A stretch of DNA of 32,000 nt from Candidatus Methylomirabilis limnetica (GCF_003044035.1 NZ_NVQC01000016.1:30001-62000), one strand, 5' to 3'. Shown: positions 12,701 to 32,000, numbered from the stretch's first letter. Translations and numbers: made by a program. Notes: generated by a model not told the origin, from the letters alone.

Positions 12701-14200
12701 TTAGAACTGAAATTGCAGCTCGGCGATCCCTTGATGCGCGAGCTCGCCGTGCGTGCTATTGCTCATCCCGACGGCATTCCGGCCTGGCCTGAGATCGATC
12801 AGGATGTAGTTCCCCCGCAGCCGGACGCTAGGGTTGACATACCAGGTCAGTCCGAGAGTGCCGGAGCGCAACTCCATCGGCACCTCATTGGCCACGGCAG
12901 ACGTAAATGCGCCTTTGTTATCATCGACCCGTACGTGCTCGTAGCGGAGGTTGGTCAGCAGGCCATTGCGCTTGGTGCCGAAGAGCCAGTAGCCGATCGT
13001 CCCATAGCCACCCTGCATGATGAGGTGATCGAGATTGCTACCGCTCGCGCCCAAGTTGTCACGCTCCTGGGAGGCGTAGGCGTACTCCCCCTTGAGCACA
13101 AACGGGTAGAAGTCGAAGACGAGGTCGCCGCCACCAGTGACTCGGTCGCCGTTGATCCGGAAGCCGTCCTGGGTCCCGCCGACGCCGTTACCGGCCAGCC
13201 TGACGCCAGTCGGACTACCCGGGTTGAAGTTCTCAAAGCCGCCGACGACTCTCGTCACCGTATTGGCATCGGTCGCGCCGTTCCCCCTTACAATCCGGAA
13301 GGTGCGGTGGTCGGCGTTCAGCCCGATGGTGAGAGTCCCGAAGGGCATCGGGGGGGACACGGCCACTCGCCCGGTGAACTCTTTCTTCCCGTCGTTGTCG
13401 ATGGCGCACTGATCGACCCGACCGCAGCCGTTATAGATCCCCACCCCATAGTAGACAGGCATGGTGGCGAGTTTCAGCGTGCCCTCGACGGTGGCACCAA
13501 GCTGCTGCTCCGGGGACAGCGCCCTGGAGATGACTGCCCGCTCGGCGAAGTCCAGGTCCCGTGCGGAGGTGAGCATCTCGAGGCCGAATCGGGGCTTGTA
13601 CTGCCCGACGGTCACCTTGGCCCACGGCGCATACGTGTAGCTGCCCCAGCCCTCTTCGAGCCGTGTACCGATGGCACCTCCCGAGATCTCTGACTCGATG
13701 AAGAAGCCGAAGTTGTTGAAGACTTGGCCGCTCACGATGATCCGAGTACGGCGCAGCCGAAATGTGCTCGGGTCGTGCCGTGCCAGCCCTGCTGCCGTCA
13801 AATCCTGACCACCAACCACACCGGGGAACTCCTCTTCATTTCGCGCCCCTTCGATTTGCATCCAAGTCTGGACGTACCCGCGCAGGCTCAGGTTGAACTG
13901 GCCATCGGCTGACTTCAGGAAGAAGCCCTTCCCGGGCTCATACCCGGTGAGCAGTGACGAGGCCGCGGCATCTGCGGCCTTCTTCTCCACCTCCATCACG
14001 CGCCTGTCGATCTCGGTCTGTTGCGCGGTCCGGTCTTGCCGTAGCCGGTGCATCTCTTGCTGCAACTGCTGCAGTGACTGCTGCTGCGTCTCAAATACCT
14101 GCTCGAGCTCTGTGAGCTTATCGGCCCACGCGGGAGCAGGGGCGAGCAGCAAGGCGCTGCCCAAGACGACACCGCGAACCCACCACTTTCTTTGATCCAT
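12701..14200 (-). CDS. Phosphate-selective porin O/P family outer-membrane channel with an N-terminal coiled coil (paralog 1, pst-linked)
   Basis: 499 aa. It has a signal peptide (ALLLAPAPAWA), a heptad-rich segment (LTELEQVFETQQQSLQQLQQEMHRLRQDRTAQQTEIDRRVMEVEKK), then alternating beta-strand sequence ending in the aromatic ...AELQFQF. Segments such as FRLRRTRIIVSG, KVTVGQYKPRFGLE and LGLTWYVNPSVRLRGNY fit Porin_O_P. It lies immediately upstream of pstS. Confidence 0.8.
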   Translation of the reverse strand: MDQRKWWVRGVVLGSALLLAPAPAWADKLTELEQVFETQQQSLQQLQQEMHRLRQDRTAQQTEIDRRVMEVEKKAADAAASSLLTGYEPGKGFFLKSADGQFNLSLRGYVQTWMQIEGARNEEEFPGVVGGQDLTAAGLARHDPSTFRLRRTRIIVSGQVFNNFGFFIESEISGGAIGTRLEEGWGSYTYAPWAKVTVGQYKPRFGLEMLTSARDLDFAERAVISRALSPEQQLGATVEGTLKLATMPVYYGVGIYNGCGRVDQCAIDNDGKKEFTGRVAVSPPMPFGTLTIGLNADHRTFRIVRGNGATDANTVTRVVGGFENFNPGSPTGVRLAGNGVGGTQDGFRINGDRVTGGGDLVFDFYPFVLKGEYAYASQERDNLGASGSNLDHLIMQGGYGTIGYWLFGTKRNGLLTNLRYEHVRVDDNKGAFTSAVANEVPMELRSGTLGLTWYVNPSVRLRGNYILIDLRPGRNAVGMSNSTHGELAHQGIAELQFQF

Positions 14201-18308: not shown

Positions 18309-18426
18309 GTCGGGTCAGGGCGCCGTACGCTTTGGACCCTGTTCTAACCGTCAGTCAAGGATGAGATCCTGCGATGTGGAAGCTCATAGGTGTCGAGGAC
18401 CAGGCGCAACGCGGAGCTGGCTTAGT

Positions 18427-19050: not shown

Positions 19051-19082
19051 CGACCCGAGAACTCGGCGTCAGAGAAGGCGCC

Positions 19083-19161
19083 GCCCAACCATCAGTTACA
19101 CCGGAGCCAGGAAAGCGGCGCTTCGCTTGCTTTCCTGGCCCGGTGAACTGGGTCGTTAGAC
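19083..19161 (+). other. attC-like recombination site (79 bp)
   Basis: R'' is GCCCAAC (19083-19089, fits RYYYAAC). The left arm CAGTTACACCGG pairs with CCGGTGAACTG, leaving one unpaired A. The inner stem CCAGGAAAGC / GCTTTCCTGG is a perfect 10 bp. R' is GTTAGAC (19155-19161, fits GTTRRRY). The site lies exactly between two ORFs. Confidence 0.55.
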
Positions 19162-19188
19162 CGCGGAACGAAACACCGAAACCAAATC

Positions 19189-19911
19189 ATGAATACGGGC
19201 GCTTTCCTTGCCGATCAGCGGCGCTATTTCGTCGGCGCGTACGAGCAATTCTGTGCCTTTGGCGGACCCTGTGTGTACTTCCATCGCGAGTGCATTCGCG
19301 CGGGTGAAGTCGACTTCTTGTCTGACAGACACATCGAGATGCTTTACGCAACGCTCACCGCGTGGGGGATGCACCGGATGGGCGACACCGACACAACCAA
19401 GACGAAGTTGACGAACTGGGGCCCATTCCGGGACTCGCTGCGTGGATGCAGTGAAGAGCTGAGACCGCTGCAGGGGGTCGATCTGCTCAACCTCACAGCG
19501 CACGAGTACTCCGATGCCGTGTCGGCTCTCACGCCCTGCTATCGGAAGCTCAAGCTGTCGGTCTCCGATGCAACTATCGTCGTTAACTCGAAGGCGCTGT
19601 ACCACCTGTTGCCGCGCATGATACCGCCCATCGACCGCCAGTACACGGTCCGGTTCTTCAAGCAGTCGCCCGACACGTGGCGTGATGCCAAAGGCAAGTT
19701 CAGGGCGGTCATGCTGCCCGCTGGCATCGAGGCTCAGTTCCAGATGTTCCACTCGATTTGTCTCGGCGTGAAGGGCTTGGTCGACCACGTAGATCTCGCG
19801 CTGCTCGAGCACGAACTTCGCTCGAACAACGTGACACCACCCAAAGCGATCGACAATGCCATCGTCAACTTCGTCAGAATTACCTCGGGTGGCCGGCTGC
19901 CGGCGGTCTAA
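19189..19911 (+). CDS. Hypothetical protein, 240 aa, no family recognised; putative cassette 2
   Basis: Uninterrupted ORF with host-like G/C-rich third positions; the overlapping minus ORF 19156..19992 looks like a shadow. Its stop codon is embedded in GTCTAAC (19906-19912), the exact complement of the preceding R' box. Confidence 0.55.
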   Translation: MNTGAFLADQRRYFVGAYEQFCAFGGPCVYFHRECIRAGEVDFLSDRHIEMLYATLTAWGMHRMGDTDTTKTKLTNWGPFRDSLRGCSEELRPLQGVDLLNLTAHEYSDAVSALTPCYRKLKLSVSDATIVVNSKALYHLLPRMIPPIDRQYTVRFFKQSPDTWRDAKGKFRAVMLPAGIEAQFQMFHSICLGVKGLVDHVDLALLEHELRSNNVTPPKAIDNAIVNFVRITSGGRLPAV

Positions 19912-19990
19912 CATTGCATGCACCATAGGTAAAATAGGGACAGACACTATTATCGTGACAATTCGTGGTGTTCGGCGGTCATGATCGTGC

Positions 19991-20089
19991 ATGCCACGGA
20001 TTACCCGAATCGTTGCACCCGGCCACCCGTATCATGTGACGCAACGAGGGAATTATCGCCAGACGGTCTTTCGGAACGACAGAGATTCG
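19991..20089 (+). pseudogene. N-terminal stub of a REP-associated/IS200-like Y1 transposase (RayT-like)
   Basis: MPRITRIVAPGHPYHVTQRGNYRQTVFRNDRD matches the P-R-x-P-R-I-x-x-PG-x-P-x-HV-x-QRGN-x-RQ-x-VF start of this family. The rest of the ORF is Arg-rich nonsense lacking the HUH and Tyr motifs. Confidence 0.6.
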
Positions 20090-20229
20090 AATGCGCACGA
20101 TGACAGAGCGGCCACTGCGAAGAGACGGGTTGATCTGGTAGGTGCACAGGAAACTGGTGTTTGGAGGGGCGTGCAGTCTTTGCGGACTAGACGCGGGGAG
20201 AGCGGCGAATCGAGGCGATCTAACTCAGG

Positions 20230-20667
20230 TCAGGCGTCGGAAGACGAGCGTCTCTCGCCGGCAAGCCATTGGCGGAGCCGTGTGAGAATCTCATCGCGGA
20301 TTCGGCGGAACGTCTCCAAGCGGTCCGCATCCGTGCCGGTGGCCTGAGAGGGGTCGCCGAAGCTCCAGTGGATGCGGGTCGTTCCCCCTGGGAACATCGG
20401 GCATCGTTCGTTGGCGCTGTCGCAGACCGTGATCACATAGTCCCATGGCTGGCTGAAGAATACGTCGATGGTTTTGGAGGTATGCCCACTCAAATCGATC
20501 CCGACCTCCTCCATAGCCCGAATCGCCAGGGGGTGGACGCGCGTCGCCTCGGTTCCGGCGCTGGCCACGTCGAAACGCTCTCCGGCCAGGGCCCGGAGGA
20601 AGCCCTCGGCCATCTGGCTCCGCGCTGAGTTGTGCGTGCAAAGAAAAAGCACTCGCGGTCTAGTCAT
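20230..20667 (-). CDS. arsC: Arsenate reductase, thioredoxin-coupled LMW-phosphatase type
   Basis: VLFLCTHNSARSQMAEG (CX5R P-loop) plus the downstream Cys pair in VITVCDSANERCP. The start is placed at 20667 (GAGAGGG lies 5 nt upstream). Confidence 0.88.
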   Translation of the reverse strand: MTRPRVLFLCTHNSARSQMAEGFLRALAGERFDVASAGTEATRVHPLAIRAMEEVGIDLSGHTSKTIDVFFSQPWDYVITVCDSANERCPMFPGGTTRIHWSFGDPSQATGTDADRLETFRRIRDEILTRLRQWLAGERRSSSDA

Positions 20668-20763
20668 GTAGGCCCTCTCAGTGTGGGACACTGACCGCAG
20701 ATCGCTGGAAAGCATCCGGAAGAGATCTAAAGCATAACGAAGCAGAGATCTTGCTGAACATGG

Positions 20764-21873
20764 TCAGGCCCGTCCGCCGATTGGCCGCCGGGGCGGTTCG
20801 ACGACCGGGACCGCTACGGGCTCGGCAAACCAGTGGCGTGTGCGATTGCAAAATGAGCACACCGAGAGCATGACCGGCACCTCGACGAGAACCCCAACCA
20901 CAGTGGCTAATGTCGCGCCAGAGGTGAGGCCAAAGAGCGAGATGGCGGTGGCGACGGCCAGTTCGAAGAAGTTGCTGGCACCGATCAGCGCCCCTGGCGC
21001 GGCGATCGAGTGAGGAACGCGGAGCCACCACGCCAACCCGTACGCCAACCCCGAGTTAAAGTAGACCTGGAGGAGCAGCGGGACCGCAATGAGCACGATG
21101 TGCGATGGCTTGCCCAGGATCACCTCCCCCTGGAATGCGAAGATGATGACGAGGGTAGCCAGGAGAGCCACAATAGTGACCGGCTTGAGCTGCGCGAGAA
21201 AGACTCCCTCTAACCACGCGGGGCCATTGATCCGGAGGAGCGCCGCGCGGGAGGCAGCCCCGGCAGCGAGCGGAATGACAATGTACAGGACCACCGAGTA
21301 CAGCAGCACGTCGTACGGCACCGCGATGTTCGAGACGCCCAGGAGAAAGATCACGATGGGCGCAAAGGCGAAGAGCATGATGAGGTCGTTCAACGCCACC
21401 TGGACCAGTGTGTAGGCTGGGTCGCCGTCAGTCAGATAGCTCCAGACAAAGACCATGGCCGTGCACGGGGCAGCCGCCAGGATGATGGTTCCAGCGAGGT
21501 ACTGATCTCCGAGGGAGGAGCCGATGATCCCGGCAAAGAGGTGTTTGAAGAAGAGCCAGCCGAGGAAGGCCATACTAAAAGGCTTTACCAACCAGTTCAC
21601 GAACAGGACGATCAGGATTCCCTTCGGTCTCCGCCCGACGTCCCTGATGGCAGAGAAGTCGATCCGCAGCATCATCGGGTAGATCATCAGCCAGATCAGG
21701 ACTGCGACAGGAAGGTTGACGTGACTCACCTCCATCCGGCTTAGGGTACCCACCAGTCCGGGGCTGACCTTGCCGATGGCGACGCCCGTCACGATACAGA
21801 GCGCCACCCAGACAGAGAGGTAGCGCTCAAAGACGTTCAGCCGCGTTGCAACTTTGACGTCCTGCTCGCTCAT
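20764..21873 (-). CDS. acr3: Arsenite efflux permease, ACR3 family
   Basis: 369 aa and about 10 TM helices. The N-terminus LNVFERYLSVWVALCIVTGVAIG...VNLPVAVLIWLMIYPMMLRIDF is typical of Acr3/ArsB(ACR3). Confidence 0.88.
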   Translation of the reverse strand: MSEQDVKVATRLNVFERYLSVWVALCIVTGVAIGKVSPGLVGTLSRMEVSHVNLPVAVLIWLMIYPMMLRIDFSAIRDVGRRPKGILIVLFVNWLVKPFSMAFLGWLFFKHLFAGIIGSSLGDQYLAGTIILAAAPCTAMVFVWSYLTDGDPAYTLVQVALNDLIMLFAFAPIVIFLLGVSNIAVPYDVLLYSVVLYIVIPLAAGAASRAALLRINGPAWLEGVFLAQLKPVTIVALLATLVIIFAFQGEVILGKPSHIVLIAVPLLLQVYFNSGLAYGLAWWLRVPHSIAAPGALIGASNFFELAVATAISLFGLTSGATLATVVGVLVEVPVMLSVCSFCNRTRHWFAEPVAVPVVEPPRRPIGGRA

Positions 21874-21928
21874 GCTGTCCTCCCGCTATCCAAATCAAGA
21901 TTCATTGATGAATGGCGCCAAAAAAAAG

Positions 21929-22255
21929 TCAATCACATCGTTTCGATGAAACGCGGAGCCCACGTCCCCTTGGCTTTAGCGAGCCAATAAACCGCTGCAG
22001 ATCCTCGATCGCCTCCAGGCTCAACGAGTAGTACACCCATCGACCCTCCCGCCTGTCCGTCAGAATTCCAGCCTCCTTGAGCGTCTTGAGATGGAAGGAG
22101 AGCAACGACTGGGTTGTCGCCAGCATGTCGGTCAAGTCGCAGACGCACTGCTCGCCGTCACTCAGACGTTCGATGATCTGCAAGCGCGTTTCATCGGAGA
22201 GAGCGTGAAACCAGCGTGCGGCGCGCGTGAGATCTTTCGGCATCAGAGATAGCAT
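21929..22255 (-). CDS. arsR: ArsR/SmtB-family metalloregulator
   Basis: FHALSDETRLQIIERLSDGEQCVCDLTDML...SFHLKTLKEAGIL. This is the winged HTH with the CVC As(III)-binding motif. Confidence 0.88.
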   Translation of the reverse strand: MLSLMPKDLTRAARWFHALSDETRLQIIERLSDGEQCVCDLTDMLATTQSLLSFHLKTLKEAGILTDRREGRWVYYSLSLEAIEDLQRFIGSLKPRGRGLRVSSKRCD

Positions 22256-22261
22256 GGAGCG

Positions 22262-22289
22262 AATATATCAATTTGTATTGATTTGTAAA
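22262..22289 (-). promoter_or_regulatory. Candidate ars promoter with an embedded palindromic operator; arsR possibly leaderless
   Basis: The minus strand reads TTTACA (22289-22284), 16-nt spacer, TATATT (22267-22262), cgctcc, then the ATG at 22255. The spacer contains the perfect palindrome ATCAAT-ttgt-ATTGAT (22267-22282). No Shine-Dalgarno sequence is present. Confidence 0.5.
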
Positions 22290-22374
22290 ACGACTATTTA
22301 CTTCTTGGACGCTCCAGTTGCCAATGCCCTTGGAGATCTGGTCAGCAGCGGGACAATCAGCGGCGTCGCCTGTG

Positions 22375-23865
22375 TCAGGTGGCCTCGGAATCGGGAGGGG
22401 CGATTGGGAGCGTGAAGCGGACTGTGGTCCCTTGGTTTAATTGGCTTTCGATGGCTAGCTCACCGCCGTGCGCCTTGACCAGGTGCTTCACGATGGCTAG
22501 TCCGAGTCCGGTCCCGCCCAGATCCCTGGAGCGAGCCCTGTCCACCCGGTAGAACCGCTCTGTGATTCTGGGCAGGTCCTGCGACGGTATTCCGACCCCA
22601 GTGTCTTCCACCGCGATCTCCACAAGCTCACTCACGCTCGCTGTTTCGAGTTTCGAGTTTCGAGTTTTGGGTTCTGAACTCGGGACTCGAAACTCGAAAC
22701 TCGAAACCAGTCTGGCGGTGACCGTCACGGTGCCGCCACTCGGTGTGAACTTGAGGCCATTGTCCAGCAGGTTGATTAGGATTTGCACCAGACGGTCACG
22801 GTCGGCCAGCACAAGCGGCAGGTTGTTTGGCAACACCACCCGCAGGTCGATTCCCAGCTTGTTTGCCTGTAGTCCGTAGATGGCCATACTACTCTCTATC
22901 ACCTCCGCGAGGCTGGTTGGGCACCAGTGGAGCGTGGCCTTCCCTAACTCCAGGTTGGAGAGGTCCAGCAGGTCGTCCAGGAGCCGGCCCAACCGCTCGG
23001 TATGCTTGTGGATTACTTCGAGGAACGGACGGGCATGCTCCCGATCCTCAAGCCCTCCTTCCAAGAGTGTCTCCAGGTACCCCTTGATCGAGGTCAGGGG
23101 GGTTCGCAGTTCATGGGAGACATTGGCCACGAACTCAGTACGAACCATCTCCAGGCGGCGCAACTCGGTCACATCATGCAGCACCAGCATTGCGCCTGAT
23201 GTCCGTTCCCGACCCTTGAGGGCAGAGGCATGCACTTGAAGAACCCGCTGCACTGGGGTAAAGATCTGAAGCTCCTGCTGGGCGAAGGCCCCCTCCTTGA
23301 GCGTGTGATTCAAGAGATCTAGCATCTCCTTGTTACGGATCACTTCGAGAAAGGGCCTGCCGTCCGCCGCTACGGATGGAGCGTTGAGGAGTCGACAGGC
23401 GCTGGCATTGATGAACAGGATGCGGTTCGCTCCATCAACCGCCACCACCCCTTCCACCATGCTATCAAGGATGGCCGCCCCCTTGGCCCGCTCTCCCTCC
23501 AGCTCCGCGAGCCGATCCTCTAACCGTTTAGCCATGAGATTCAGGGCACGTCCCAACTGGCCGATTTCATCGGAGGAGGGCGCGGACATCTTGCAGGAGA
23601 AGTCGCCTTCGGCCATGCGGTAAGCGGCGGTTGTCATCTCCAGGATGGGTTGTGTTACCTGACGGGCGAAGAGGAAGCCCAGAACCGCCGCCGCAGCCAG
23701 AGCAAGCAGGCCCCAGATGACCAGCGTCAGCCAGCTCTCCTTCAGGCGCTCAACTAGGGCGGTATCCGGTGATGTAAGGACGGTGAGACCGACAGCGACG
23801 GCGATGCCTGCCACCAAGAGCAGGTACGTGGCGATAAGCTTTTGTTCAAGCTTGCCTGGGATCAC
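22375..23865 (-). CDS. phoR: Sensor histidine kinase, PhoR-like (2 TM with a very short outer loop, HAMP, PAS, HisKA, HATPase_c)
   Basis: 496 aa. H-box FVANVSHELRTPLTSIKGY, N-box LINLLDNGLKFT, G-boxes EDTGVGIP and GGTGLGLAIVK. It lies directly downstream of an OmpR-family regulator and in the same window as the pst operon and Pho boxes. Confidence 0.75.
   Translation of the reverse strand: MIPGKLEQKLIATYLLLVAGIAVAVGLTVLTSPDTALVERLKESWLTLVIWGLLALAAAAVLGFLFARQVTQPILEMTTAAYRMAEGDFSCKMSAPSSDEIGQLGRALNLMAKRLEDRLAELEGERAKGAAILDSMVEGVVAVDGANRILFINASACRLLNAPSVAADGRPFLEVIRNKEMLDLLNHTLKEGAFAQQELQIFTPVQRVLQVHASALKGRERTSGAMLVLHDVTELRRLEMVRTEFVANVSHELRTPLTSIKGYLETLLEGGLEDREHARPFLEVIHKHTERLGRLLDDLLDLSNLELGKATLHWCPTSLAEVIESSMAIYGLQANKLGIDLRVVLPNNLPLVLADRDRLVQILINLLDNGLKFTPSGGTVTVTARLVSSFEFRVPSSEPKTRNSKLETASVSELVEIAVEDTGVGIPSQDLPRITERFYRVDRARSRDLGGTGLGLAIVKHLVKAHGGELAIESQLNQGTTVRFTLPIAPPDSEAT
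22643..22707. repeat. Palindromic heptamer-repeat element inside the phoR coding sequence
   Basis: gTTTCGAGTTTCGAGTTTCGAGTT (22643-22666), an 18-nt centre, then ACTCGAAACTCGAAACTCGAAAC (22685-22707). That is (TTTCGAG)x3 facing (CTCGAAA)x3. It is translated in frame as SSFEFRVPSSEPKTRNSKLETAS between the N-box and G1-box. Confidence 0.85.
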
Positions 23866-23888
23866 GGGTGCCCTTGCTGCCGCGCCAA

Positions 23889-24572
23889 TCAGGTATCCTG
23901 ATCGAACCGATAGCCGACGTTCTTCACGGTGACGATGCGCGTGGCCTCTGGACCCAGCTTTTCACGGAGGCGCCGGACATGGACATCGACGGTGCGGGAT
24001 TCTATCTCGGAGGCTCGCTCGTATCCCCAGACCCGGGCCAGAAGAAACTCTCGCGTCAGAGCGCGTCCCTTGGCGAGGACCAGGGCTTTTAACAGGTCGA
24101 ACTCCTTGCTTGTTAGCTCCACCGCTCGCTTCCGGATAGAGACAGTGTACCGGCCGAGATCAATCTCCAGGCTACCCACCTTGAAGACCTCCTCCTCCTG
24201 AGTCTCCTCGCTTCTGCGAATCAGGGCCTTGACCCTCGCCACCAGTTCTCTCGGTCCGAACGGCTTGGTGAGATAGTCGTCGCCGCCCAGTTCAAGGCCT
24301 AGAACCTTGTCGGTCTCCTCCGCCTTGGCGGTAAGCATCAGGATCGGTAGACGTGCGGTGTCGGGTTCTTTGCGAAGCCGACGGCAGACATCCAACCCGC
24401 TCAGATGCGGCAGCATCAGATCCAGGACCAGCAGGTGTGGCCGCTCACGCTTGACCAGCTCTAATGCCTGGAGGCCATCATGCGCCTGAAGGACACGAAA
24501 TCCCTCGCGCTCCAGATGGTACGCGACCAGGGCGGTAATGTCTTTTTCATCGTCCACGACCAGGACTTTCAT
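23889..24572 (-). CDS. phoB: OmpR-family response regulator, PhoB-like
   Basis: 227 aa. Receiver domain MKVLVVDDEKDI...LVLDLMLP...LTAK, and a winged-helix output domain ending VGYRF. It is paired with the PhoR-like kinase. Confidence 0.75.
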   Translation of the reverse strand: MKVLVVDDEKDITALVAYHLEREGFRVLQAHDGLQALELVKRERPHLLVLDLMLPHLSGLDVCRRLRKEPDTARLPILMLTAKAEETDKVLGLELGGDDYLTKPFGPRELVARVKALIRRSEETQEEEVFKVGSLEIDLGRYTVSIRKRAVELTSKEFDLLKALVLAKGRALTREFLLARVWGYERASEIESRTVDVHVRRLREKLGPEATRIVTVKNVGYRFDQDT

Positions 24573-24661
24573 GACAGCGTCTCCTGCTGGTCAGGCCGGT
24601 GCAGGCCAATATCCTACGTATAGTGCATCCAATGCTTCTTTACACATTCCGTTCGCCCTGA

Positions 24662-24753
24662 GCTTGTCGAAGGGTGAAGTAGTTCAATGGGTTCCGTCCA
24701 TGGGTTCGACAAGCCTGTGGTGAGCCTGTCGAACTGCTCACCACGAACGGATT
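24662..24753. repeat. REP-like element family C, full copy
   Basis: GCTTGTCGAA (24662-24671) pairs with TTCGACAAGC (24705-24714). GGTGAGC (24719-24725) pairs with GCTCACC (24736-24742). The 3' part cctgtcgaactgctcaccacgaacggatt recurs at 26600-26628. Confidence 0.6.
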
Positions 24754-24892
24754 TAAAGGTGTTTGTGAGACACTGCACTAGCTTGTCTACCTTGGGCAGA
24801 TGATAGCCACCTTCCCGTGGAGCCGCAAGCGCTTTCGTTCGGCTGGGGCAGGGATTGCGCTTGACCTGATGGACGAACCGTAGTAAATATAC

Positions 24893-24916
24893 CGATATGT
24901 TTATACATGCATATCG
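24893..24916. promoter_or_regulatory. Candidate ModE-type operator overlapping the modE-like gene's promoter region
   Basis: Inverted repeat CGATATG (24893-24899), 10-nt spacer, CATATCG (24910-24916), embedded in AT-rich ATATAC/TTATAC repeats 10 nt before the ATG. E. coli ModE operators are TAT-containing inverted repeats of similar span. Confidence 0.4.
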
Positions 24917-24926
24917 AGGCTGACCG

Positions 24927-25265
24927 ATGCAGCTTGAGCTGAAATCGAAGACTTGGCTGGAGGTTGATGGCAAGTTCATCATCGGGGAGCACGGCATCGC
25001 GCTCCTGGAGGCGATCGATGAACTTGGGTCGATCCAGCAGGCGGCGAGACAGCTCGGGTGGGCCTATCGGCACACTTGGGGGTATCTCAAGAATATGGAG
25101 CGGAACGCCGGCATGCCAATCCTGCTTGTCCGCCGAGGAGGGAAGTCAGGCGGTGGGACACAGCTCACGCCGCAAGGGCGCAAGCTGCTGCGGGACTACA
25201 AGCGATTACAGAAGACGTTGCGGGCAACCATACAACAGAAATCGCGGTTGCTATTCTCGTACTAA
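24927..25265 (+). CDS. modE: ModE N-terminal-domain-only regulator (winged HTH), lacking Mop/TOBE domains
   Basis: 112 aa. GIALLEAIDELGSIQQAARQLGWAYRHTWGYLKNMERNAG.PILLVRRGGKSGGGTQLTPQGRKLL matches the ModE N-terminal HTH module. Confidence 0.75.
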   Translation: MQLELKSKTWLEVDGKFIIGEHGIALLEAIDELGSIQQAARQLGWAYRHTWGYLKNMERNAGMPILLVRRGGKSGGGTQLTPQGRKLLRDYKRLQKTLRATIQQKSRLLFSY

Positions 25266-25271
25266 CACTTT

Positions 25272-25288
25272 ATGCGGCATTGCCGCAT
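25272..25288 (+). terminator. Short hairpin just after the modE-like stop codon (weak terminator candidate)
   Basis: ATGCGGC-att-GCCGCAT. No U-tract follows. Confidence 0.25.
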
Positions 25289-25312
25289 CACGGCCCATAA
25301 AAATACATCTTG

Positions 25313-25428
25313 ACCCCCCATCCTTACCTTCCCCCCCGGATCGAGTCCGAGGCAGGTTCTCATGGGGGGAAGGGACACCTCACGTAGACTCCTCCCCCCT
25401 CGGAGGGGGAGGATACAGGTGGGGGGGA
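25313..25428. repeat. REP-like element family B, copy 1 (G/C-run nested hairpins)
   Basis: CCTTCCCCCC (25328-25337) pairs with GGGGGGAAGG (25364-25373), and TCCTCCCCC-ctcgga-GGGGGAGGA forms a second hairpin. It shares the 3' motif GGGGGA(GA)GGATACAGGTG-R-GGGGG with 31095-31120. Confidence 0.65.
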
Positions 25429-25503
25429 TTTCCAGGGAAGCTACAGGCGCAAAAGTGACAGATATCACCAAGGTGATGTCCGGAGAGGGAGGAGGTGGGG
25501 AGG

Positions 25504-25710
25504 ATGGAAATGAGCGCACGGAATCAATTGCCTGGGACTATTAAGAAGGTCACAGTCGGAGCCGTGATGGCTGAGGTGATCATGCAAGTGGGGGATCAAG
25601 AGCTGGCCGCAGCTATCACCAGCGGCTCGGTCAAGCGAATGAAATTGAAAGTGGGTGATAGGGTCTTCGCCGTCATCAAAGCCACCGAAGTCATGATCGC
25701 CAAGGAGTAG
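25504..25710 (+). CDS. mop: Stand-alone molbindin (Mop/TOBE domain, molybdate/tungstate-binding)
   Basis: MEMSARNQLPGTIKKVTVGAVMAEVIMQVGDQELAAAITSGSVKRMKLKVGDRVFAVIKATEVMIAKE is a canonical single TOBE/Mop domain. A strong GGAGGAGG Shine-Dalgarno sequence lies upstream. Confidence 0.85.
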   Translation: MEMSARNQLPGTIKKVTVGAVMAEVIMQVGDQELAAAITSGSVKRMKLKVGDRVFAVIKATEVMIAKE

Positions 25711-25716
25711 CCGGAG

Positions 25717-26598
25717 ATGATGGGAGTCATGGGTGAGAGATGGCTGAAAAACGCTCGTAAGCGCTTTGTCGTAGGTCTGGCGGCGCTTGGCATTCTGCAG
25801 ATCGCGTTGATCTGTAGCGTCCAGGCCGCAGGCCAGATTGTCATCCTGGCCACCACGACCAGCACGCAGGATTCGGGCCTGCTTGACGTTGTGGTCCCAC
25901 TGTTTGAGAAGCGAACCGGCTATGTGGTAAAAACGATTTCTGTCGGAACCGGTCAGGCGCTTGCCTTGGGCGGTCGGGGTGAAGCCGATGTCGTCCTGGT
26001 TCATGCGCCTGAGGCTGAGAAGAAATACTTAGCCGAGGGGACGCTCGTCAACCGTCGGCTGGTCATGCACAACGATTTCATCGTCGTCGGCCCGAAGGAA
26101 GATCCTGCCCAGATCGGTGGCCTAAAGAAGGCGAGTGATGCGCTCCGTAGGATCGGCGAGACAAAGGCGGCGTTCGTTTCGCGCGGCGACAACTCTGGAA
26201 CGCATCAACTCGAAAGACGCCTCTGGAAGGAGACGGGGTTAGACCCCAATGGCGACTGGTATCTACAATCGGGCCAGGGGATGGGACAGACCCTCGCAAT
26301 CGCGTCAGAGAAGCGGGCCTATACCCTCACCGATCGCGGGACCTACGTGGCCTTGAAAAAGCGGGTCCAGCTTGAGGTTCTGGTGGAGCGGGACAAATCT
26401 CTCCTGAATATCTACTCGGTCATGGAGGTCAATCCTGCCAGGTTTCCCAAGGTGAATGCTGCGGGTGGGAAGGCGTTCGCGGACTTCATGATCTCGGCCG
26501 AGACCCAGGCTGTCATCAAGACGTTCGGCATCGAGAAGTTTGGTGAGCCGCTGTTCTTCCCGGATGCCGGCAAACGCGAGGAAGAACTTGGATCCTGA
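25717..26598 (+). CDS. tupA: Tungstate ABC transporter substrate-binding protein TupA
   Basis: Signal peptide, then IVILATTTSTQDSGLLDVVVPLFEK (the TTTS motif characteristic of TupA), FVSRGDNSGTH and YTLTDRGTY. Confidence 0.8.
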   Translation: MMGVMGERWLKNARKRFVVGLAALGILQIALICSVQAAGQIVILATTTSTQDSGLLDVVVPLFEKRTGYVVKTISVGTGQALALGGRGEADVVLVHAPEAEKKYLAEGTLVNRRLVMHNDFIVVGPKEDPAQIGGLKKASDALRRIGETKAAFVSRGDNSGTHQLERRLWKETGLDPNGDWYLQSGQGMGQTLAIASEKRAYTLTDRGTYVALKKRVQLEVLVERDKSLLNIYSVMEVNPARFPKVNAAGGKAFADFMISAETQAVIKTFGIEKFGEPLFFPDAGKREEELGS

Positions 26599-26599
26599 A

Positions 26600-26628
26600 C
26601 CTGTCTAACTGCTCACCACGAACGGATT
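26600..26628. repeat. REP-like element family C, partial copy (3' half only)
   Basis: cctgtctaactgctcaccacgaacggatt versus cctgtcgaactgctcaccacgaacggatt at 24725-24753. It sits in the tupA-porin gap. Confidence 0.7.
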
Positions 26629-26678
26629 GTAAAGACATTTAAGAGACGCCACACTAACGACACAGAGGGATGAGAAGG

Positions 26679-28193
26679 ATGGTTCAAAAAAGAAGTTGGT
26701 GGATTCGTACAATCGTCGTAGGCAGCGCCTTGCTGCTCGCCCCTGTGGGGGCGTGGGCCGACAAGCTCATGGAGCTCGAGCAGGTATTTGAGACGCAGCA
26801 GAAGTCGCTGCAGCAGTTGCAGCAGGAGATGCACCGCCTGCGGCAAGACCGGACCGCGCAACAGACAGAGATCGACAGGCGCGTGATGGAGGTGGAGAAG
26901 AAGGCCGCAGATGCCGCAGCCTCGTCACTGCTCACCGGGTATGAGCCCGGAAAAGGGTTCTTCCTGAAGTCAGCCGATGGCCAGTTCAATCTGAGCCTGC
27001 GCGGGTACGTCCAGAGTTGGATGCAAGTTGAAGGGGCGCGAGGGGAAGAAGGTTTCCCTGGTGTCGTTGATGGTCAGGATGTGACGGCAGCAGGGCTGGC
27101 ACGGCACGAACCGAGTACATTTCGGATGCGTCGCGCCCGGATCATCGTGAGCGGCAAGATCTTCAACGACTTCAGCTTCTACATCGAGCCGGAGCTTACG
27201 AGCGGCTCCATCGGCACACGCCTCGAAGCTGGCTGGGTCAGCTACACGTACGCCCCGTGGGCAAAGGCTACCTTTGGGCAGTACAAGGCCAGGTTCGGCC
27301 TCGAAATGCTCACCGCCTCTACCGACCTGGACTTCGCCGAGCGGGCAGTCGTTGCCAGGTCGCTCTCCCCGGACTGGCAACTTGGCGCCACCGTCGAGGG
27401 CAATCTGAAACTCGCCACCCTACCTGTCTACTATGGGGTGGGGATCTATAACGGCTGCGGTCGAGTCGATCAGATTGGTTGCGCCATCGACAACGACGGG
27501 AATAAGGAGTTCACCGGTCGAGTGGCCGTGTCCCCCCCGATGCCCTTCGGGACTCTCACCATCGGGCTGAATGCCGATCACCGCACCTTCCGGATCGTGA
27601 GGGGTAACGGCGCGACCGATGCCAACACGGTGACGAGGGTCGTTGGCGGCTTTGAGAACTTCAACCCGGTTGGTCCGACCGGGGTCAGGCTGGCCGGCAA
27701 CGGCGTCGGCGGGACCCAGAACGGCTTCCGGATCAACGGCAACCGAGTCACTGGCGGCGGCGATATCGTGTTCGACTTCTATCCGTTTGTAATCAAGGGG
27801 GAGTACGCCTACGCCTCCCAGGAGCGTGACGAATTGGATGTTGGCGGCACGAATCTCGATAACCTCATCATGCATGGTGGGTATGGGTCGATCGGCTACT
27901 GGATCTTCGGCAATAAGCGCAATGGCCTGTTAGCCAACGGCCGCTACGAGCACCTGCGCGTCGATGATAACGAGGGCGCATTTACTGCGCCTGACTCGGC
28001 CACAAACGAGAGGCCGATGGAGCTGCGCTCTGGAACCCTTGGTCTGACCTGGTACGTCAACCCCAGCGTCAAGCTGCGGGGGAACTACATCATGACCGAC
28101 CTCAGGCCAGGCCGTAATGCCGTCGGCATGAGCAACAGCACACACGGCGAACTCGCGCATCAAGGGATCGCCGAGCTGCTGATCCAATTCTAA
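26679..28193 (+). CDS. Phosphate-selective porin O/P family channel, paralog 2 (mod/tup-linked)
   Basis: Colinear with 12701..14200 over its whole length: same signal peptide type, coiled coil, beta-barrel and C-terminal aromatic LLIQF. The start is ATG 26679 (GAGGGA ~8 nt upstream) or 26670. Confidence 0.8.
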   Translation: MVQKRSWWIRTIVVGSALLLAPVGAWADKLMELEQVFETQQKSLQQLQQEMHRLRQDRTAQQTEIDRRVMEVEKKAADAAASSLLTGYEPGKGFFLKSADGQFNLSLRGYVQSWMQVEGARGEEGFPGVVDGQDVTAAGLARHEPSTFRMRRARIIVSGKIFNDFSFYIEPELTSGSIGTRLEAGWVSYTYAPWAKATFGQYKARFGLEMLTASTDLDFAERAVVARSLSPDWQLGATVEGNLKLATLPVYYGVGIYNGCGRVDQIGCAIDNDGNKEFTGRVAVSPPMPFGTLTIGLNADHRTFRIVRGNGATDANTVTRVVGGFENFNPVGPTGVRLAGNGVGGTQNGFRINGNRVTGGGDIVFDFYPFVIKGEYAYASQERDELDVGGTNLDNLIMHGGYGSIGYWIFGNKRNGLLANGRYEHLRVDDNEGAFTAPDSATNERPMELRSGTLGLTWYVNPSVKLRGNYIMTDLRPGRNAVGMSNSTHGELAHQGIAELLIQF

Positions 28194-28359
28194 TATGCAA
28201 ATTAATGGCAGGCTTCAACCTAAGCTCACCATGGTGCAGTAGCGGGGTCTGTCGCTTCTCATGCGAACCATACATCTGGTGGGCTTCGGCATTCTAAGGC
28301 AAGCGTCGACCTAGGTCTGGATTGCGTTTTGAGGCGTAATCAGCATATACTGAACCAGA

Positions 28360-29196
28360 ATGCTGCGGGGGGATCGAGAGACAATCCGACTGGGGTGGCG
28401 CTTGCGTGATTATGCCACGAAGGGTTGGCTGTTAGGTCTCCTGGTGCTCGGTGCGTGGTTCACCATCGCATCTGCGGCGTCGAAGCGTGAGTTGTTGGTG
28501 TCCGCCGCGATCAGCCTGAAGGAGCCGCTGCAAGAAATTGGCGTACTGTTTGAACAACGCCACCCAGAGGTGAAGGTGGTTTTCAACTGGGGCGCGTCCG
28601 GCGCGTTGCAGCAGCAGATCGAGTATGGCGCGCCAGTCGACGTCTATGCCTCCGCCGCGGCGAAACAGATGGACGAACTCGAGGCCAAGGGCCTTCTCCT
28701 CAATGAAACCCGACGTACACTTGCTGCCAACCTGGTAGTCCTGATCAGATCTTCTGCTCTTCGATCCGATCTTACCTCCTTCAAAGATTTGACCAAACCT
28801 GAAGTCAAGCTGATCGCTATCGGCAATCCGCGGACCGTTCCCGCTGGAGAGTACGCGCAGAGGATCCTGATGAGTCTTGGGTTGTGGGATTCGCTGCAGC
28901 CGAAGCTAATCCTCACCGGGAGTGTTCGCCAGGCCCTGGCCTACGTCGTGAGAGGCGAGGTGGATGCCGCCGTGGTCTATGCCACCGACGCGCAGAGCGC
29001 TGATCGAGCGGTCCAGGTGATCTCCGCCGCGCCCGAGGGGAGTCATCCGCCTGCGCTGTATCCGATCGCCGTGGTCAAGACCTCGAAGCAAAGCCAAGAG
29101 GCCCGGGCCTTCGTCGATCTGGCGCTGAGCGAGGCGGGCCAGCAGATCCTGAGGGCCCATGCGTTCCTGCCACCACCCAAGGCTCTGGCCCGCTGA
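28360..29196 (+). CDS. modA: Molybdate ABC transporter substrate-binding protein ModA
   Basis: LLVSAAISLKEPLQEIGVLFE...VVFNWGASGALQQQIEYGAPVDVYASAA...IAIGNPRTVPAGEYA...YATDA matches ModA signatures. Confidence 0.85.
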   Translation: MLRGDRETIRLGWRLRDYATKGWLLGLLVLGAWFTIASAASKRELLVSAAISLKEPLQEIGVLFEQRHPEVKVVFNWGASGALQQQIEYGAPVDVYASAAAKQMDELEAKGLLLNETRRTLAANLVVLIRSSALRSDLTSFKDLTKPEVKLIAIGNPRTVPAGEYAQRILMSLGLWDSLQPKLILTGSVRQALAYVVRGEVDAAVVYATDAQSADRAVQVISAAPEGSHPPALYPIAVVKTSKQSQEARAFVDLALSEAGQQILRAHAFLPPPKALAR

Positions 29197-29244
29197 AGCG
29201 GACGGTCAGGATGCGAGACCGCCTATCATCGTAAGAGGACAGCC

Positions 29245-29907
29245 ATGACTCTTATCCCACTGTCTCCCCTGCTCCTGTCGTTGAAGATCGCGAGCCTCGC
29301 GACAGTGGCCGCGCTGCTCCTTGGCACCCCGATTGCGTGGATACTGGCGCGAGGCCGTTTTCCAGGCAGGGCAGTCCTGGAAGCGATCGTGGTGGTTCCG
29401 CTGATCTTGCCGCCTACCGTGACCGGCTACTACTTGCTACTGCTGATCGGCCGACGCGGGCTCCTGGGACGTATTCTGGAGGAGGGCCTGAACATCGGCC
29501 TCGTCTTTACGTGGAAGGCCGCCGTCCTCGCCTCGACCATCGCGGCGTTACCGCTGTTCATTAAAGCCGCTCAGGGTGCGTTTGAAGGGATCGACCGCCG
29601 AATCGAAGATGCGGGTCGAACATTCAAGCCTGCCTTGGTCGTGCTGTGCACCATCACTTTTCCCCTGGCGTGGCGGGGCATCTTGGCAGGGGCGATCCTG
29701 GCTTTTGCCAGGGCCATGGGAGAGTTCGGGATTACACTGATGATTGCCGGAAGTATCCCGGGGCGGACCCAGACGCTTGCCCTCGCGATTTACGACTCAG
29801 TCCAGGCAAATCAGCCGCAGGAGGCGAATGCCATGTCGATCCTGGCGACGGCCACCGTGCTGCTGATCCTCGTGCTGGTCGGACGGATGACGAAGGTCAA
29901 ATACTGA
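29245..29907 (+). CDS. modB: Molybdate ABC transporter permease ModB
   Basis: 220 aa and 5-6 TM helices. It has the EAA-type loop AGRTF...ITFPLAWRGILAGAILAFARAMGEFGITLMIAGSIPG. Its stop overlaps the modC start (TGATG). Confidence 0.85.
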   Translation: MTLIPLSPLLLSLKIASLATVAALLLGTPIAWILARGRFPGRAVLEAIVVVPLILPPTVTGYYLLLLIGRRGLLGRILEEGLNIGLVFTWKAAVLASTIAALPLFIKAAQGAFEGIDRRIEDAGRTFKPALVVLCTITFPLAWRGILAGAILAFARAMGEFGITLMIAGSIPGRTQTLALAIYDSVQANQPQEANAMSILATATVLLILVLVGRMTKVKY

Positions 29908-31001
29908 TGCTTGAACTCGCGCTTGACAGACGATTTAAGGGATTCCATCTCCAGACGCATCTTCAGATCGGCGATGAAATCGCCGCTCTGTATGGCCCAT
30001 CCGGTTCGGGCAAGAGTCTCACGCTCCTGGCCATTGCCGGCCTGATCAGACCGACTTCCGGAACGATTCGCATCAACGGTCGGACTGTCTTTGACGCGAA
30101 GGCCGGCATCAATCTTGCGCCGCATCAGCGGCGGGTTGGCCTCGTGTTCCAGGAGTATGCTCTCTTCCCGCATAAGACAGTGTCAGGGAATCTCTCATTT
30201 GGGCTGGCTCGAGGGGTTCCCACACATGAAGCAGCCTCCAGGGTTGACGAGATGCTTCAACTGCTGCGGCTCCAGTCATTCGCACAGCATTATCCGCATC
30301 AGATCTCAGGCGGACAGCGGCAACGCGTGGCCTTGGGGCGTGCCCTGATCGGTCACCCTGAGATCCTACTGCTGGACGAGCCGTTCTCCGCCCTTGATCT
30401 GGCTATCCGAGAGACCCTCCGACAGGAGTTGCTCCAGATGCTGGCTGACTACAAGGGCACGATCCTGCTTGTGACCCATAATCTTCAAGAGGCGTATCTC
30501 ATGGCCTCCACCATCGCCATCATTGACGGCGGCAAGATTCTCCAGATGGGAACTCGAGAAGAGGTACTCCATCAACCACGGACCCGGCGCGTGGCCGAGC
30601 ATACCGGCGCGAAGAACATCTTGCGAGGTGTTGCCTGCCGCGACCCAGACGGCGCCTTGGACATCGTCTGGCGAGGGCATCATCTGCGGGCCGATGGCCC
30701 GGCGCCGTCGGCCCCTGGGGAGGTGGAATGCTGCATCCGACCGGAGGATGTCAGACTGGTATGGCCGGAAAGGCCGGGGCGGCGTGAGAACCTCCTGCGC
30801 GGCCGAATCGTCCACGAACTTGGGCGCGGTCTTGACTTTCTGCTCTTTGTCAGCCTCACCGATGAGAGCGATCGCGGGAAGTATGACCTGGAAATCCAGG
30901 TCCGAAGCCGCCTCCACCACTTGATGGCGCTGCATGTGGGAAAAGAGGTGTGGCTGTCGTTGCCACCAGACCGCTTACACCTGCTCCAGCCTGACGAGTG
31001 A
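29907..31001 (+). CDS. modC: Molybdate ABC transporter ATP-binding protein ModC with a C-terminal TOBE domain
   Basis: MLELALDRRF..., Walker A GPSGSGKS, signature ISGGQRQRVALGRA, Walker B LLLDEPFSALD, and a C-terminal TOBE-like beta domain. The ORF-track start 29646 is an out-of-context extension overlapping modB. Confidence 0.85.
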   Translation: MLELALDRRFKGFHLQTHLQIGDEIAALYGPSGSGKSLTLLAIAGLIRPTSGTIRINGRTVFDAKAGINLAPHQRRVGLVFQEYALFPHKTVSGNLSFGLARGVPTHEAASRVDEMLQLLRLQSFAQHYPHQISGGQRQRVALGRALIGHPEILLLDEPFSALDLAIRETLRQELLQMLADYKGTILLVTHNLQEAYLMASTIAIIDGGKILQMGTREEVLHQPRTRRVAEHTGAKNILRGVACRDPDGALDIVWRGHHLRADGPAPSAPGEVECCIRPEDVRLVWPERPGRRENLLRGRIVHELGRGLDFLLFVSLTDESDRGKYDLEIQVRSRLHHLMALHVGKEVWLSLPPDRLHLLQPDE

Positions 31002-31025
31002 TGGTCGCCAATCATTGGTCCGAAA

Positions 31026-31120
31026 GCTCCCCCTCACCCACGCCCTCTCCCCCAAAGGGGCGAGGGAACTCAAAAAATATCCTCTCCCCCAGGTGGGGGA
31101 GAGGATACAGGTGAGGGGGT
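31026..31120. repeat. REP-like element family B, copy 2
   Basis: Perfect hairpin CCTCTCCCCC (31081-31090) - aggt - GGGGGAGAGG (31095-31104). The outer arms CCCCCTCAC (31029-31037) and GTGAGGGGG (31111-31119) also pair. It lies in the modC-tupB gap. Confidence 0.7.
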
Positions 31121-31187
31121 ATGGGGTGCCGACTTTCATGCTCATGGGCAAGCCTCCGGCGCATGCGGGAATGGTAAAGGAGCAAGG

Positions 31188-31886
31188 ATGGAGCTGATCT
31201 GGCAAGGCACCAAGCAGGCCGTCCTGCTGCTTGTTCACGGCGACCCGGAGGTCCTGCAGATTATGCTGCTTTCGCTGCAGGTCTCGGGGACCGCGACCCT
31301 GCTCAGCCTGCTGATAGGCGTCCCGCTTGGCACCGTCTTGGCCCTAGGCCGCTTTCCTGGACGGGGCATCGCCATCAGTCTGGTCAACACCGGGATGGGC
31401 TTGCCGCCGGTAGTGGTCGGCTTATTCGTGAGCATCTTCCTCTGGCGGAGCGGCCCGCTTGGCTTTCTGGAGTTGCTCTACACGCCAACTGCCATGGTCC
31501 TAGCTCAACTCGCCCTCGCCGCCCCGGTCGTCACTGGTCTCACGGTCGCCGCAGTTCAGCAGTTGAACCCGCGACTGCGCATGCAGCTTGTGGGACTCGG
31601 TGCATCGAGACTTCAGGTCGTGTACCTCCTCCTCAAAGAGGCGCGCCTGCCGCTCTTAGCTGCGCTGATGGCCGGCTTCGGTGCGGTCATCTCCGAGATC
31701 GGCGCCTCCATGATGGTGGGCGGCAACATCTACCGGCAGACGCGGGTGCTCACCACTGCCACTGTCTTAGAAACCAGCAGGGGAAATTTCGACATGGCGA
31801 TCGCGCTTTCTCTCCTGCTGATGCTCCTGACCTTTAGCGTGAACGTGACTCTTACCTGGATCCAGCAACGTGGGCGGACACCGTGA
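31188..31886 (+). CDS. tupB: Tungstate ABC transporter permease TupB
   Basis: 232 aa and ~6 TM helices. It is a small ABC permease followed by an overlapping ATPase gene, with the matching TupA encoded upstream in the same locus. Confidence 0.7.
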   Translation: MELIWQGTKQAVLLLVHGDPEVLQIMLLSLQVSGTATLLSLLIGVPLGTVLALGRFPGRGIAISLVNTGMGLPPVVVGLFVSIFLWRSGPLGFLELLYTPTAMVLAQLALAAPVVTGLTVAAVQQLNPRLRMQLVGLGASRLQVVYLLLKEARLPLLAALMAGFGAVISEIGASMMVGGNIYRQTRVLTTATVLETSRGNFDMAIALSLLLMLLTFSVNVTLTWIQQRGRTP

Positions 31887-32000
31887 GCGGGCCGATACTC
31901 TGCATCGAGAGGGTCAAGGTCACATACGACGGCAGGCTCATCCTTGACGCGCCGTCATTTGAGGTCCAGGAGGGACAGACTCTGGCCGTCATCGGCCCAA
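31883..32000 (+). CDS. tupC: ABC transporter ATP-binding protein, probable TupC (5' part only; runs off the window)
   Basis: The GTG start overlaps the tupB stop (GTGA). VSGPILCIERVKVTYDGRLILDAPSFEVQEGQTLAVIGP leads into a Walker A motif at the window edge. Confidence 0.65.
   Translation, partial: MSGPILCIERVKVTYDGRLILDAPSFEVQEGQTLAVIGP

Follow-up and report, generated by a model that had tools for sequence, protein, structure and literature searches.

We analysed a 32,000-nt stretch of DNA (the window) from Candidatus Methylomirabilis limnetica, a methane-oxidising NC10 bacterium, in which a porin gene of the Porin_O_P family, here called porin2, lies inside a tungstate/molybdate (W/Mo) uptake locus. 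The window was mapped from a listing of open reading frames (ORFs) and hidden Markov model (HMM) scans, which together bear out the gene order given in the original prediction, modE-mop-tupA-porin-modA-modB-modC-tupB-tupC, all on the + strand (Table 1). ModA and ModB reach equivalog level in these scans; ModC falls below it, yet has a TOBE_2 tail. The TupA-like protein scores 228 bits against the TupA model NF041772 (equivalog cut-off, 400) and the TupB-like permease 163.5 bits against the TupB model NF041773 (cut-off, 320), and we refer to the tup genes as TupABC-like, with scores from which a preference for W over Mo cannot be read. To read past the window end we used a contig (L026; ENA ERZ4201065 NODE_42) that equals the window over 15717-32000 at 100% identity. 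It adds a full 363-aa TOBE-tailed TupC, a conserved 82-aa ORF, moaC and, further on, selA. Another contig, L023, matches the window at 99.96% identity across 2701-24200. Elsewhere in the window the - strand carries a phoU fusion, pstB, pstA, pstC, pstS, a second porin gene (porin1), then ACR3, ArsR, a PhoR/PnpS-like kinase and a PhoB-like regulator. The porin1 product matches P0004 (Ca. M. limnetica CLG94_04665) with 100% identity.

Table 1. Features of the W/Mo locus and of the linked phosphate genes in the window, with the evidence for each assignment.
Feature	Position	Strand	Evidence
Porin1, T1 paralog linked to pst, directly upstream of pstS-pstC-pstA-pstB-phoU	12701..14200	-	PF07396, 59.7 bits
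PhoR/PnpS-like histidine kinase	22375-23865	-	PnpS, 396 bits (cut-off 400)
PhoB-like response regulator, divergent from modE	23889-24572	-	PhoB TIGR02154, 247 bits (cut-off 296)
Promoter-like TTGACC and TAAATA, then predicted ModE-type operator CGATATGTTTATACATGCATATCG	24861-24866, 24884-24889; operator 24893-24916	+	10 nt 5' of modE start
ModE-like regulator, DNA-binding domain only, 112 aa	24927..25265	+	TIGR00637 ModE_repress, 85.5 bits (under cut-off of 98.5); Pfam HTH_1
Stand-alone Mop/TOBE molybdate-binding protein	25495..25710	+	PF03459, 68.5 bits; TIGR00638 Mop, 70.7 bits (cut-off 55)
TupA-like periplasmic tungstate/molybdate-binding protein	25717..26598	+	PBP_like_2, 158.7 bits; TTTS motif in translation
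61-nt genome-specific repeat, most of the tupA-porin spacer	26596..26656	+	second copy at 24721-24780, 82% identical
Porin2, Porin_O_P	26679..28193 (ORF from 26670)	+	PF07396, 61.9 bits (cut-off 20.9)
Promoter-like TTGCGT-N18-TATACT	28322..28351	+	ends 8 nt 5' of modA ATG
ModA	28360-29196	+	TIGR01256, 200.3 bits (cut-off 62.5)
ModB	29245-29907	+	TIGR02141, 215.6 bits (cut-off 182.6)
ModC with TOBE_2 tail	29907-31001	+	TIGR02142, 213.9 bits (under cut-off of 285); TOBE_2, 32 bits
TupB-like permease	31188-31886	+	NF038017, 265 bits (cut-off 100)
TupC-like ABC ATPase, start only in the window	31883 onwards (to 32000)	+	continues in L026

The association of a porin with this locus extends well beyond the window. 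A metagenome scan with TupA gave 80 loci, comprising 21 that share the synteny of a response regulator and histidine kinase pair facing modE-mop-tupA and 59 that are more distant (60-70% tupA identity). We find a porin inside approximately 20 Methylomirabilales-type W/Mo loci, with tupA identities of 71-90%, and it usually stands directly 3' of tupA. Among the 21 syntenic loci, those with enough downstream sequence fall into a group with a porin 3' of tupA (L030-L034, L040, L042/43, L045, L046, and L048-50) and a group without one (L035-L037). By comparison, the more distant loci contain no porin (0/59), and tupB follows tupA wherever their downstream sequence suffices. Loci of the same order as in the window are L002, L009, L115, and L110: L002 displays the full arrangement, with a porin 75-77% identical to porin2, and L009, whose contig starts inside the porin gene, displays porin-modABC-tupBC at 74-77% identity. 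The linkage, whose absence from related genomes would have pointed to an accidental insertion according to the original prediction, is conserved in some 20 loci and across two porin lineages, far beyond what chance would give.

These two lineages, which we call T1 and T2, are 25-31% identical to each other. The porin of the W/Mo locus is a T1 porin in the window and in L002, L009, L031, L033/34, L114, and L115, and it is a T2 porin in most relatives, namely, L030, L032, L040, L042/43, L045, L046, L048-50, and L110. In the TupA tree, T2 is present in both major clades and T1 is confined to the clade of the window. This distribution suggests that T2 is likely the ancestral occupant of the slot and that T1 replaced it at least once, with the gene in the window being one such likely replacement. 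Non-orthologous displacement in situ is otherwise hard to explain, and functional coupling between the porin and the locus is therefore strongly supported. Three distant T2 homologs (50%, 41%, and 35% identity), a small sample, lie beside a molybdopterin oxidoreductase, ppx, or lipopolysaccharide genes, and none of the three is linked to tup or mod.

What is conserved is the porin itself and not a larger unit. It had been proposed that porin and modABC entered a tup operon as one block, and the related loci speak against this. In L042/43 (tupA-T2-MOT1-like-tupBC-moaC) a porin occurs without modABC, and L114 (modE-T1-modABC-moaC) combines porin and modABC without tup genes and with no phoBR nearby. 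The formylmethanofuran dehydrogenase genes fwdD and fwdB enter the slot in L030 (tupA-T2-fwdD-fwdB-modABC-tupBC-moaC), L031 (tupA-fwdDB-T1), and L115 (tupA-fwdDB-T1-modABC-tupBC), and L110 reads tupA-T2-modABC-aldehyde dehydrogenase-tupBC-moaC. What stays constant among them is that the W/Mo locus contains a porin.

Several further observations concern the other contents of these loci. In distant tupA loci (L051, L062, L079, L081, L090, L098, and similar), modE/modA/mop/modB/modC lie between tupB and tupC without a porin, which shows that mod and tup genes are widely interleaved, independently of the porin. In one clade (L035-L037, L042, and L043), the position of modABC, 5' of tupB and 3' of tupA or the porin, is taken by an MFS_MOT1-type molybdate transporter (PF16983, 191 bits; e.g., L043:5310-6470). 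The fwdD and fwdB genes (FwdB: TIGR03129, 403 bits) are located at L031:9517-11167, L030:12642-14310, and L115:3648-5349, and the genome of the window is without this insert. The fwdB gene of L031 is interrupted within SSV-TGA-HGP by a TGA codon in frame, consistent with selenocysteine, and selA is found downstream of the locus in L026.

Porin2 is a distant member of PF07396 with the OprO/OprP fold. Its signal peptide is predicted to be cleaved after AWA, and an AF2 model (pLDDT 82, pTM 0.74) shows a helix/coiled coil at residues 33-84 followed by 16 long strands. In a Foldseek search with this model, the top matches are OprP (2o4v; E 7e-22), OprO (4rjw; 7e-21), and 4rjx (E values to 4e-20), with TM scores of 0.67-0.68 on the target, and general porins follow at 3.5e-12 or weaker, about ten orders of magnitude behind. 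The family profile likewise matches OprO at 2e-13. T2 porins score higher on PF07396 than either T1 porin of the window, at 145-162 bits. The Pseudomonas aeruginosa channels OprP and OprO (2o4v, 4rjw) are accordingly the best profile and fold match, sharing the 16-strand barrel, the long loops L3 and L5, and a gene adjoining a high-affinity oxyanion ABC importer. Porin2 differs from them by only 18% identity, by an extra N-terminal coiled coil of about 50 residues, and by its linkage, which is to tupA/modABC behind a ModE-type operator rather than to pst and the Pho system. DcaP of Acinetobacter baumannii (6eus) and OmpM-type porins (8bys) are also among the fold matches, and DcaP joins an N-terminal periplasmic coiled coil to a 16-strand anion-preferring barrel, the same stalk-plus-barrel layout as in porin2. 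However, these are different families with a far weaker fold match (E 1e-9 against 7e-22 for OprP), and OmpM has an SLH domain as well.

The profile alignment to OprO allows some comparison of pore residues. We take the arginine ladder, lysine cluster, and central phosphate site of OprP to involve R59, R60, D94, K121, and R133. Conserved equivalents of R59/R60 (R154/R155), R133 (R225), and D94 (E186) are aligned in porin2, although at 18% identity the loop alignment is unreliable. The ladder arginines of L5 align to non-basic residues, under the same reservation. Given the retained equivalents, a basic anion pore is plausible from the aligned sequence, and by analogy with OprP the protein is probably trimeric.

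The predicted ModE-type operator lies immediately upstream of modE, preceded by the promoter-like hexamers. Its inverted repeat, CGATATGTTTATACATGCATATCG, resembles the Escherichia coli ModE consensus as quoted in PMC545781. The pattern CGATATG-N10-CATATCG has this single match in the window at ≤3 mismatches, and no second operator is found 5' of porin2 or modA at that threshold. The same architecture, cTTGAC, ~17 nt, tgGTA.., and CGATATGTTTA-N5-6-ACATA[AT]CG, is present upstream of modE in 16/16 related loci. Downstream, the tupA-porin spacer measures 80 nt and the porin-modA spacer 166 nt, all on one strand, and our scan detects no terminator-like site on the + strand in either. In L114, only 19 nt separate the porin stop from the modA start. 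The promoter-like element that precedes modA is kept in the window, L002, L009, L030, and L115 regardless of which gene lies upstream, and it went unreported by a stricter consensus scan. Because the tupA-porin spacer lacks a terminator-like site and modA carries its own promoter-like element, the porin is most probably transcribed with modE-mop-tupA, and modABC-tupBC are possibly also driven by a second promoter. The short distance between the modA element and the annotated ATG suggests either that the modA mRNA has no leader or a very short one or that the start codon has been placed wrongly.

Other regulatory signals were sought with less success. No molybdenum cofactor riboswitch or other known RNA is found across the window, even at E ≤ 1. 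The E. coli-type Pho box has a single match in the window, which is within chance expectation and far from both porins, and this consensus may not apply to NC10. We also considered the 61-nt repeat in the tupA-porin spacer as a regulatory site of porin2 and rejected it: its sole other copy lies in the spacer between the response regulator gene and modE, and neither it nor the other short G-rich repeats occur in the corresponding L002 spacers. The intergenic spacers of the window appear swollen by short repeats, namely, the 61-nt pair and G-rich palindromes of the type GGGGGAGGATACAGGTG.GGGG. Compared with L002/L009, the modE-mop spacer (25265-25495) is 230 versus 67 nt and the modC-tupB spacer (31001-31188) 187 versus 35 nt, and the repeats look like small mobile or REP-like elements.

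Porin2 and porin1 are close paralogs, as originally predicted, with 84% identity and 92% similarity at the protein level and 86.7% identity at the DNA level. The DNA homology ends at the stop codon and 23 nt 5' of the ATG at 26679, which is likely the start of porin2, because it aligns with the porin1 ATG; the gene call in L026 agrees. Four short patches had been singled out as the places where the two proteins differ, and all four are present verbatim. Yet the differences do not concentrate there: 80-odd substitutions are scattered over its whole length, and divergence peaks at residues 150-240 (60-80% identity; strands b2-b5, L2, and L3), which had not been listed. The paralog comparison gives an overall dN/dS of 0.24, which indicates that porin2 is under purifying selection, and dS ranges from 0.18 (residues 241-360) to 0.6 (451-507).

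This uneven divergence has a mosaic structure. Porin2 groups with porin1 at residues 21-140, 241-360, and 441-507 (90-100% identity) and with the Mo/W-linked orthologs at ~141-220 and 361-420. By site pattern, 69 sites join porin2 to porin1 and 36 join it to the L002 ortholog, the latter clustered at 164-245 and 351-448. The number of runs, 29 against 48.3 ± 4.6 expected (p ≤ 5e-5), demonstrates this clustering, which indicates that porin2 has been partly homogenised with porin1 by gene conversion within this genome.

The T1 lineage as a whole is a multi-copy porin family. All homologs at 54-88% identity belong to Methylomirabilis/NC10, and databases label them only “porin” or “phosphate-selective porin.” We observe four conserved classes of genomic context. 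Two are those seen in the window, STAS-porin-pstSCAB-phoU and modE-mop-tupA-porin-modABC-tupBC. In the third (L021, L024, L004, L005, L007, L008, and L011), two NorB-like genes of the NO dismutase type (nod) and a PAS/GerE regulator stand on one side and porin-ftsH...pmoCAB on the other. In the fourth (L001, L003, and L020), the porin lies beside a TonB receptor and metH. The original prediction saw porin2 as a duplicated phosphate porin that had been recruited to the locus. Porin2 and the pst-linked porin do come from the same paralog pool; the designation as a phosphate porin, however, comes from the Pfam name, and the family also includes nod/pmo- and metH-linked copies.

Some T1 copies show features of their own. 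The nod-linked clade has a distinct start of L3 (GQFRD.. versus GQYK.RFG), which hints at another substrate, e.g., nitrite. In L013 (2274-3617), from another Methylomirabilis MAG, the porin that stands between STAS and pstSCAB-phoU has only 44-46% identity to T1 and 30-32% to T2, and the pst slot may thus also have changed its occupant, parallel to the W/Mo slot. The T1 porins of L115 and L031 share 35-75 nt of leader (in the regions L115:5890-6000 and L031:11085-11193) with porin1 (14201-14290, - strand), including a GC hairpin, GCGCTCC...GGAGCGC. It appears that T1 porins were copied as a cassette together with their 5' region, of which just 23 nt of leader are left at porin2.

Whether the pore itself has been adapted can be approached through the residues that follow genomic context. 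According to the secondary structure of the model, the four patches, which had been put forward as selectivity determinants, correspond to loops L4 (264-274), L5 (332-339), L6 (385-398), and L7 (438-452), all predicted to be external. The L5-L7 versions recur in differently linked paralogs of other genomes: copies linked to metH or nod have NPVGPTGV, and a pst-linked copy has FTAP..ERPME. The L4 version DQIGCAID is unique to porin2. None is common to the Mo/W-linked orthologs, and the patches fail as markers of the Mo/W class. Other positions perform better. W236 is found in 6/7 Mo/W-linked T1 porins and 0/16 others, which have Q (pst), Y (metH), or L (nod). The Mo/W class has A187 instead of E, as well as T/S218 in L3, where most pst and metH copies have R and nod copies have Q; Y171 is also class linked. 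All four residues lie within the unconverted tract (164-245), which includes L3. When used as a predictor, W236 correctly assigned two unseen homologs, P0012 and P0028, to the Mo/W-linked class. An exception is L033, whose tupA-linked porin carries the pst-type Q236 and R218. Candidate markers of the class come down to W236, T/S218, and A187, and judging from the model, position 218 in L3 is a better pore candidate than 236.

On balance, we consider it probable that porin2 is a ModE-controlled anion channel of the OprO/OprP fold that feeds WO4/MoO4 to TupA and ModA and whose specialisation is mainly regulatory. Under this explanation, modE-mop-tupA-porin would stand behind a single promoter with the ModE-type operator. 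When W/Mo is scarce, ModE/Mop would leave the operator and the porin would be made along with TupA. WO4/MoO4 would then cross the outer membrane via porin2 to reach the periplasmic TupA and ModA, and modABC-tupBC, which follow on the same strand, may be expressed with help of their own conserved promoter-like element. Methylomirabilis would more generally attach lineage-specific porin copies to its pst, nod/pmo, metH (by the TonB receptor), and tup/mod loci. In the W/Mo slot, an older dedicated T2 barrel appears to have been exchanged for a T1 copy that was later partly homogenised with the pst copy. The idea of a recruited porin as the outer-membrane entry step for W/Mo thus stands insofar as a porin of this fold is an integral and conserved part of the locus; its derivation from a phosphate porin is not demonstrated, and the patches proposed to confer selectivity have been set aside. 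We favour regulatory subfunctionalisation over specialisation of the pore, because T1 and T2 are interchangeable, porin2 is homogenised with the pst copy, and class markers are few; a modest change in selectivity may nonetheless accompany it. More tentatively, one may envisage a dedicated ModE-regulated W/Mo outer-membrane channel in Methylomirabilales, with T2 ancestral and T1 with W236 as the replacement, in which A187, T/S218, and W236 in and around L3 would adapt an OprP-type pore to larger oxyanions.

Several observations weigh against the regulatory explanation or parts of it. A distinct selectivity is not evident, given the high identity of porin2 to the pst copy. OprP K121, which we take to be essential there, aligns to M213 in porin2, in an alignment whose loops are unreliable at this level of identity, and residue 236 probably faces outward, as deduced from the alternation of polar and apolar residues in strand b6 of the model. 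The modA gene has its own promoter-like element without a ModE operator match, so that porin and modABC may represent separate transcription units. The phoBR-like pair adjoining modE is kept in most relatives, with L114 lacking it. Finally, L035-L037 contain no porin and read tupA-MOT1-like, then tupB where the contig reaches (L036), which indicates that the porin is dispensable in some lineages.

Among the alternatives, the one that fares best, though we deem it unlikely, is that the pore of porin2 has been re-tuned for MoO4/WO4 and that the residues distinguishing it from the pst paralog form a selectivity filter. A few residues do track the Mo/W class despite conversion elsewhere, one of them (T/S218) in the constriction loop, and the unconverted tract contains that loop. 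These points are countered by the location of the patches in predicted loops L4-L7 and their sharing, for L5-L7, with paralogs outside the Mo/W class, by the probable outward orientation of W236, and by the L033 porin. Furthermore, T2 fills the same slot, and this interchangeability suggests that any anion-selective Porin_O_P barrel suffices.

We regard it as improbable that porin2 is a by-product of a recombination-prone slot, i.e., a mobile T1 cassette with its own leader that serves as a general housekeeping porin or as an outer-membrane tether. The contents of the slot are indeed highly variable (T1, T2, fwdDB, MOT1-like, modABC, or no porin), the leader shared by L115, L031, and porin1 fits a cassette, short repeats flank porin2 in the window, and T1 copies sit at unrelated loci too. 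Nevertheless, T1 or T2 porins have been independently retained in the loci described above, all other cargo of the slot is W/Mo related (Fwd, MOT1, and ModABC), and the gene is under purifying selection. Equally doubtful is the view that porin2 is a second phosphate porin of the Pho regulon, sited by the adjacent phoB/phoR-like genes and only incidentally linked to tup/mod, since its PF07396 membership, its similarity to the pst-linked copy, and the PhoB/PhoR-like pair that divergently adjoins modE here and in most relatives are set against a position ~2 kb from phoB on the other strand and behind modE, mop, and tupA, retention of porins of both lineages in the W/Mo locus, the modE-porin-modABC arrangement of L114 with no phoBR in its vicinity, and the lack of an E. 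coli-type Pho box near either porin, with the reservation on that consensus given above.

Some features of the window lie outside the W/Mo locus. The pst-linked PhoU (5365-6714) is a fusion of PhoU and PhoU_div (DUF47) of 449 aa, and PstC (756 aa) and PstA (540 aa) are longer than usual (7689-11578). Positions 1-240 of the window repeat part of phoU (5414-5653) at 91% identity, and a second phoU-like copy may exist. In addition, a duplication of ~0.5 kb with 93-94% identity (15261-15776 and 17095-17708) links two ORF regions with Big_7 domains, one on either side of a PIN-domain gene.

In the textbook account, mod and tup systems begin in the periplasm. Porins are nevertheless known from other uptake operons, such as OprB with the glucose ABC system and LamB in the mal regulon. 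These systems resemble the porin2 locus in that an outer-membrane channel is co-located, and presumably co-regulated, with a binding protein and an ABC importer; they differ in substrate class, which at the porin2 locus would be a trace-metal oxyanion. We found no porin described in a mod or tup operon in the searchable literature. The sole outer-membrane molybdate step that we found described in the literature searched is that of P. aeruginosa, in which a ModA secreted by the type VI secretion system acts with the outer-membrane protein IcmP in molybdate acquisition (Wang et al. 2021, as summarised in PMC8602904). This system differs in that its binding protein is itself secreted and its receptor is of the metalloprotease type rather than a diffusion channel, and it is unrelated to porin2 in sequence and mechanism. 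A possible parallel exists in Geobacter metallireducens, whose Gmet_1042 is given as a phosphate-selective porin ortholog in PMC2996986. The text of PMC2700814 gives the same tag as moeB, and a table in that paper assigns moeB to Gmet_1043, so the locus tags conflict. Should Gmet_1042 indeed be the porin, Geobacter would have a Porin_O_P gene next to genes for molybdopterin synthesis.

The passage of molybdate and tungstate across the outer membrane at nanomolar supply is essentially undescribed, and the locus presented here offers a concrete candidate route. What is new is an operon-embedded porin of the OprP family associated with a different oxyanion system, in which the functional steps would follow as outlined above; if Methylomirabilales do possess a dedicated W/Mo channel of this kind, no porin would have been assigned to the entry of these oxyanions before it. 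Natural controls are at hand in the pst-linked copy in the same genome, which is 84% identical, the T2 porins in the same slot of sister genomes, and the relatives without a porin. More generally, the pattern is that of a porin family that diversifies through the operons to which its copies are wired, with gene conversion maintaining the similarity of their barrels. For the physiology of NC10 bacteria, the likely relevance lies in the supply of W/Mo enzymes: nitrate reductase requires Mo, and sister loci encode a formylmethanofuran dehydrogenase B, putatively with selenocysteine, together with FwdD, for which reasons the locus likely feeds enzymes of this kind.

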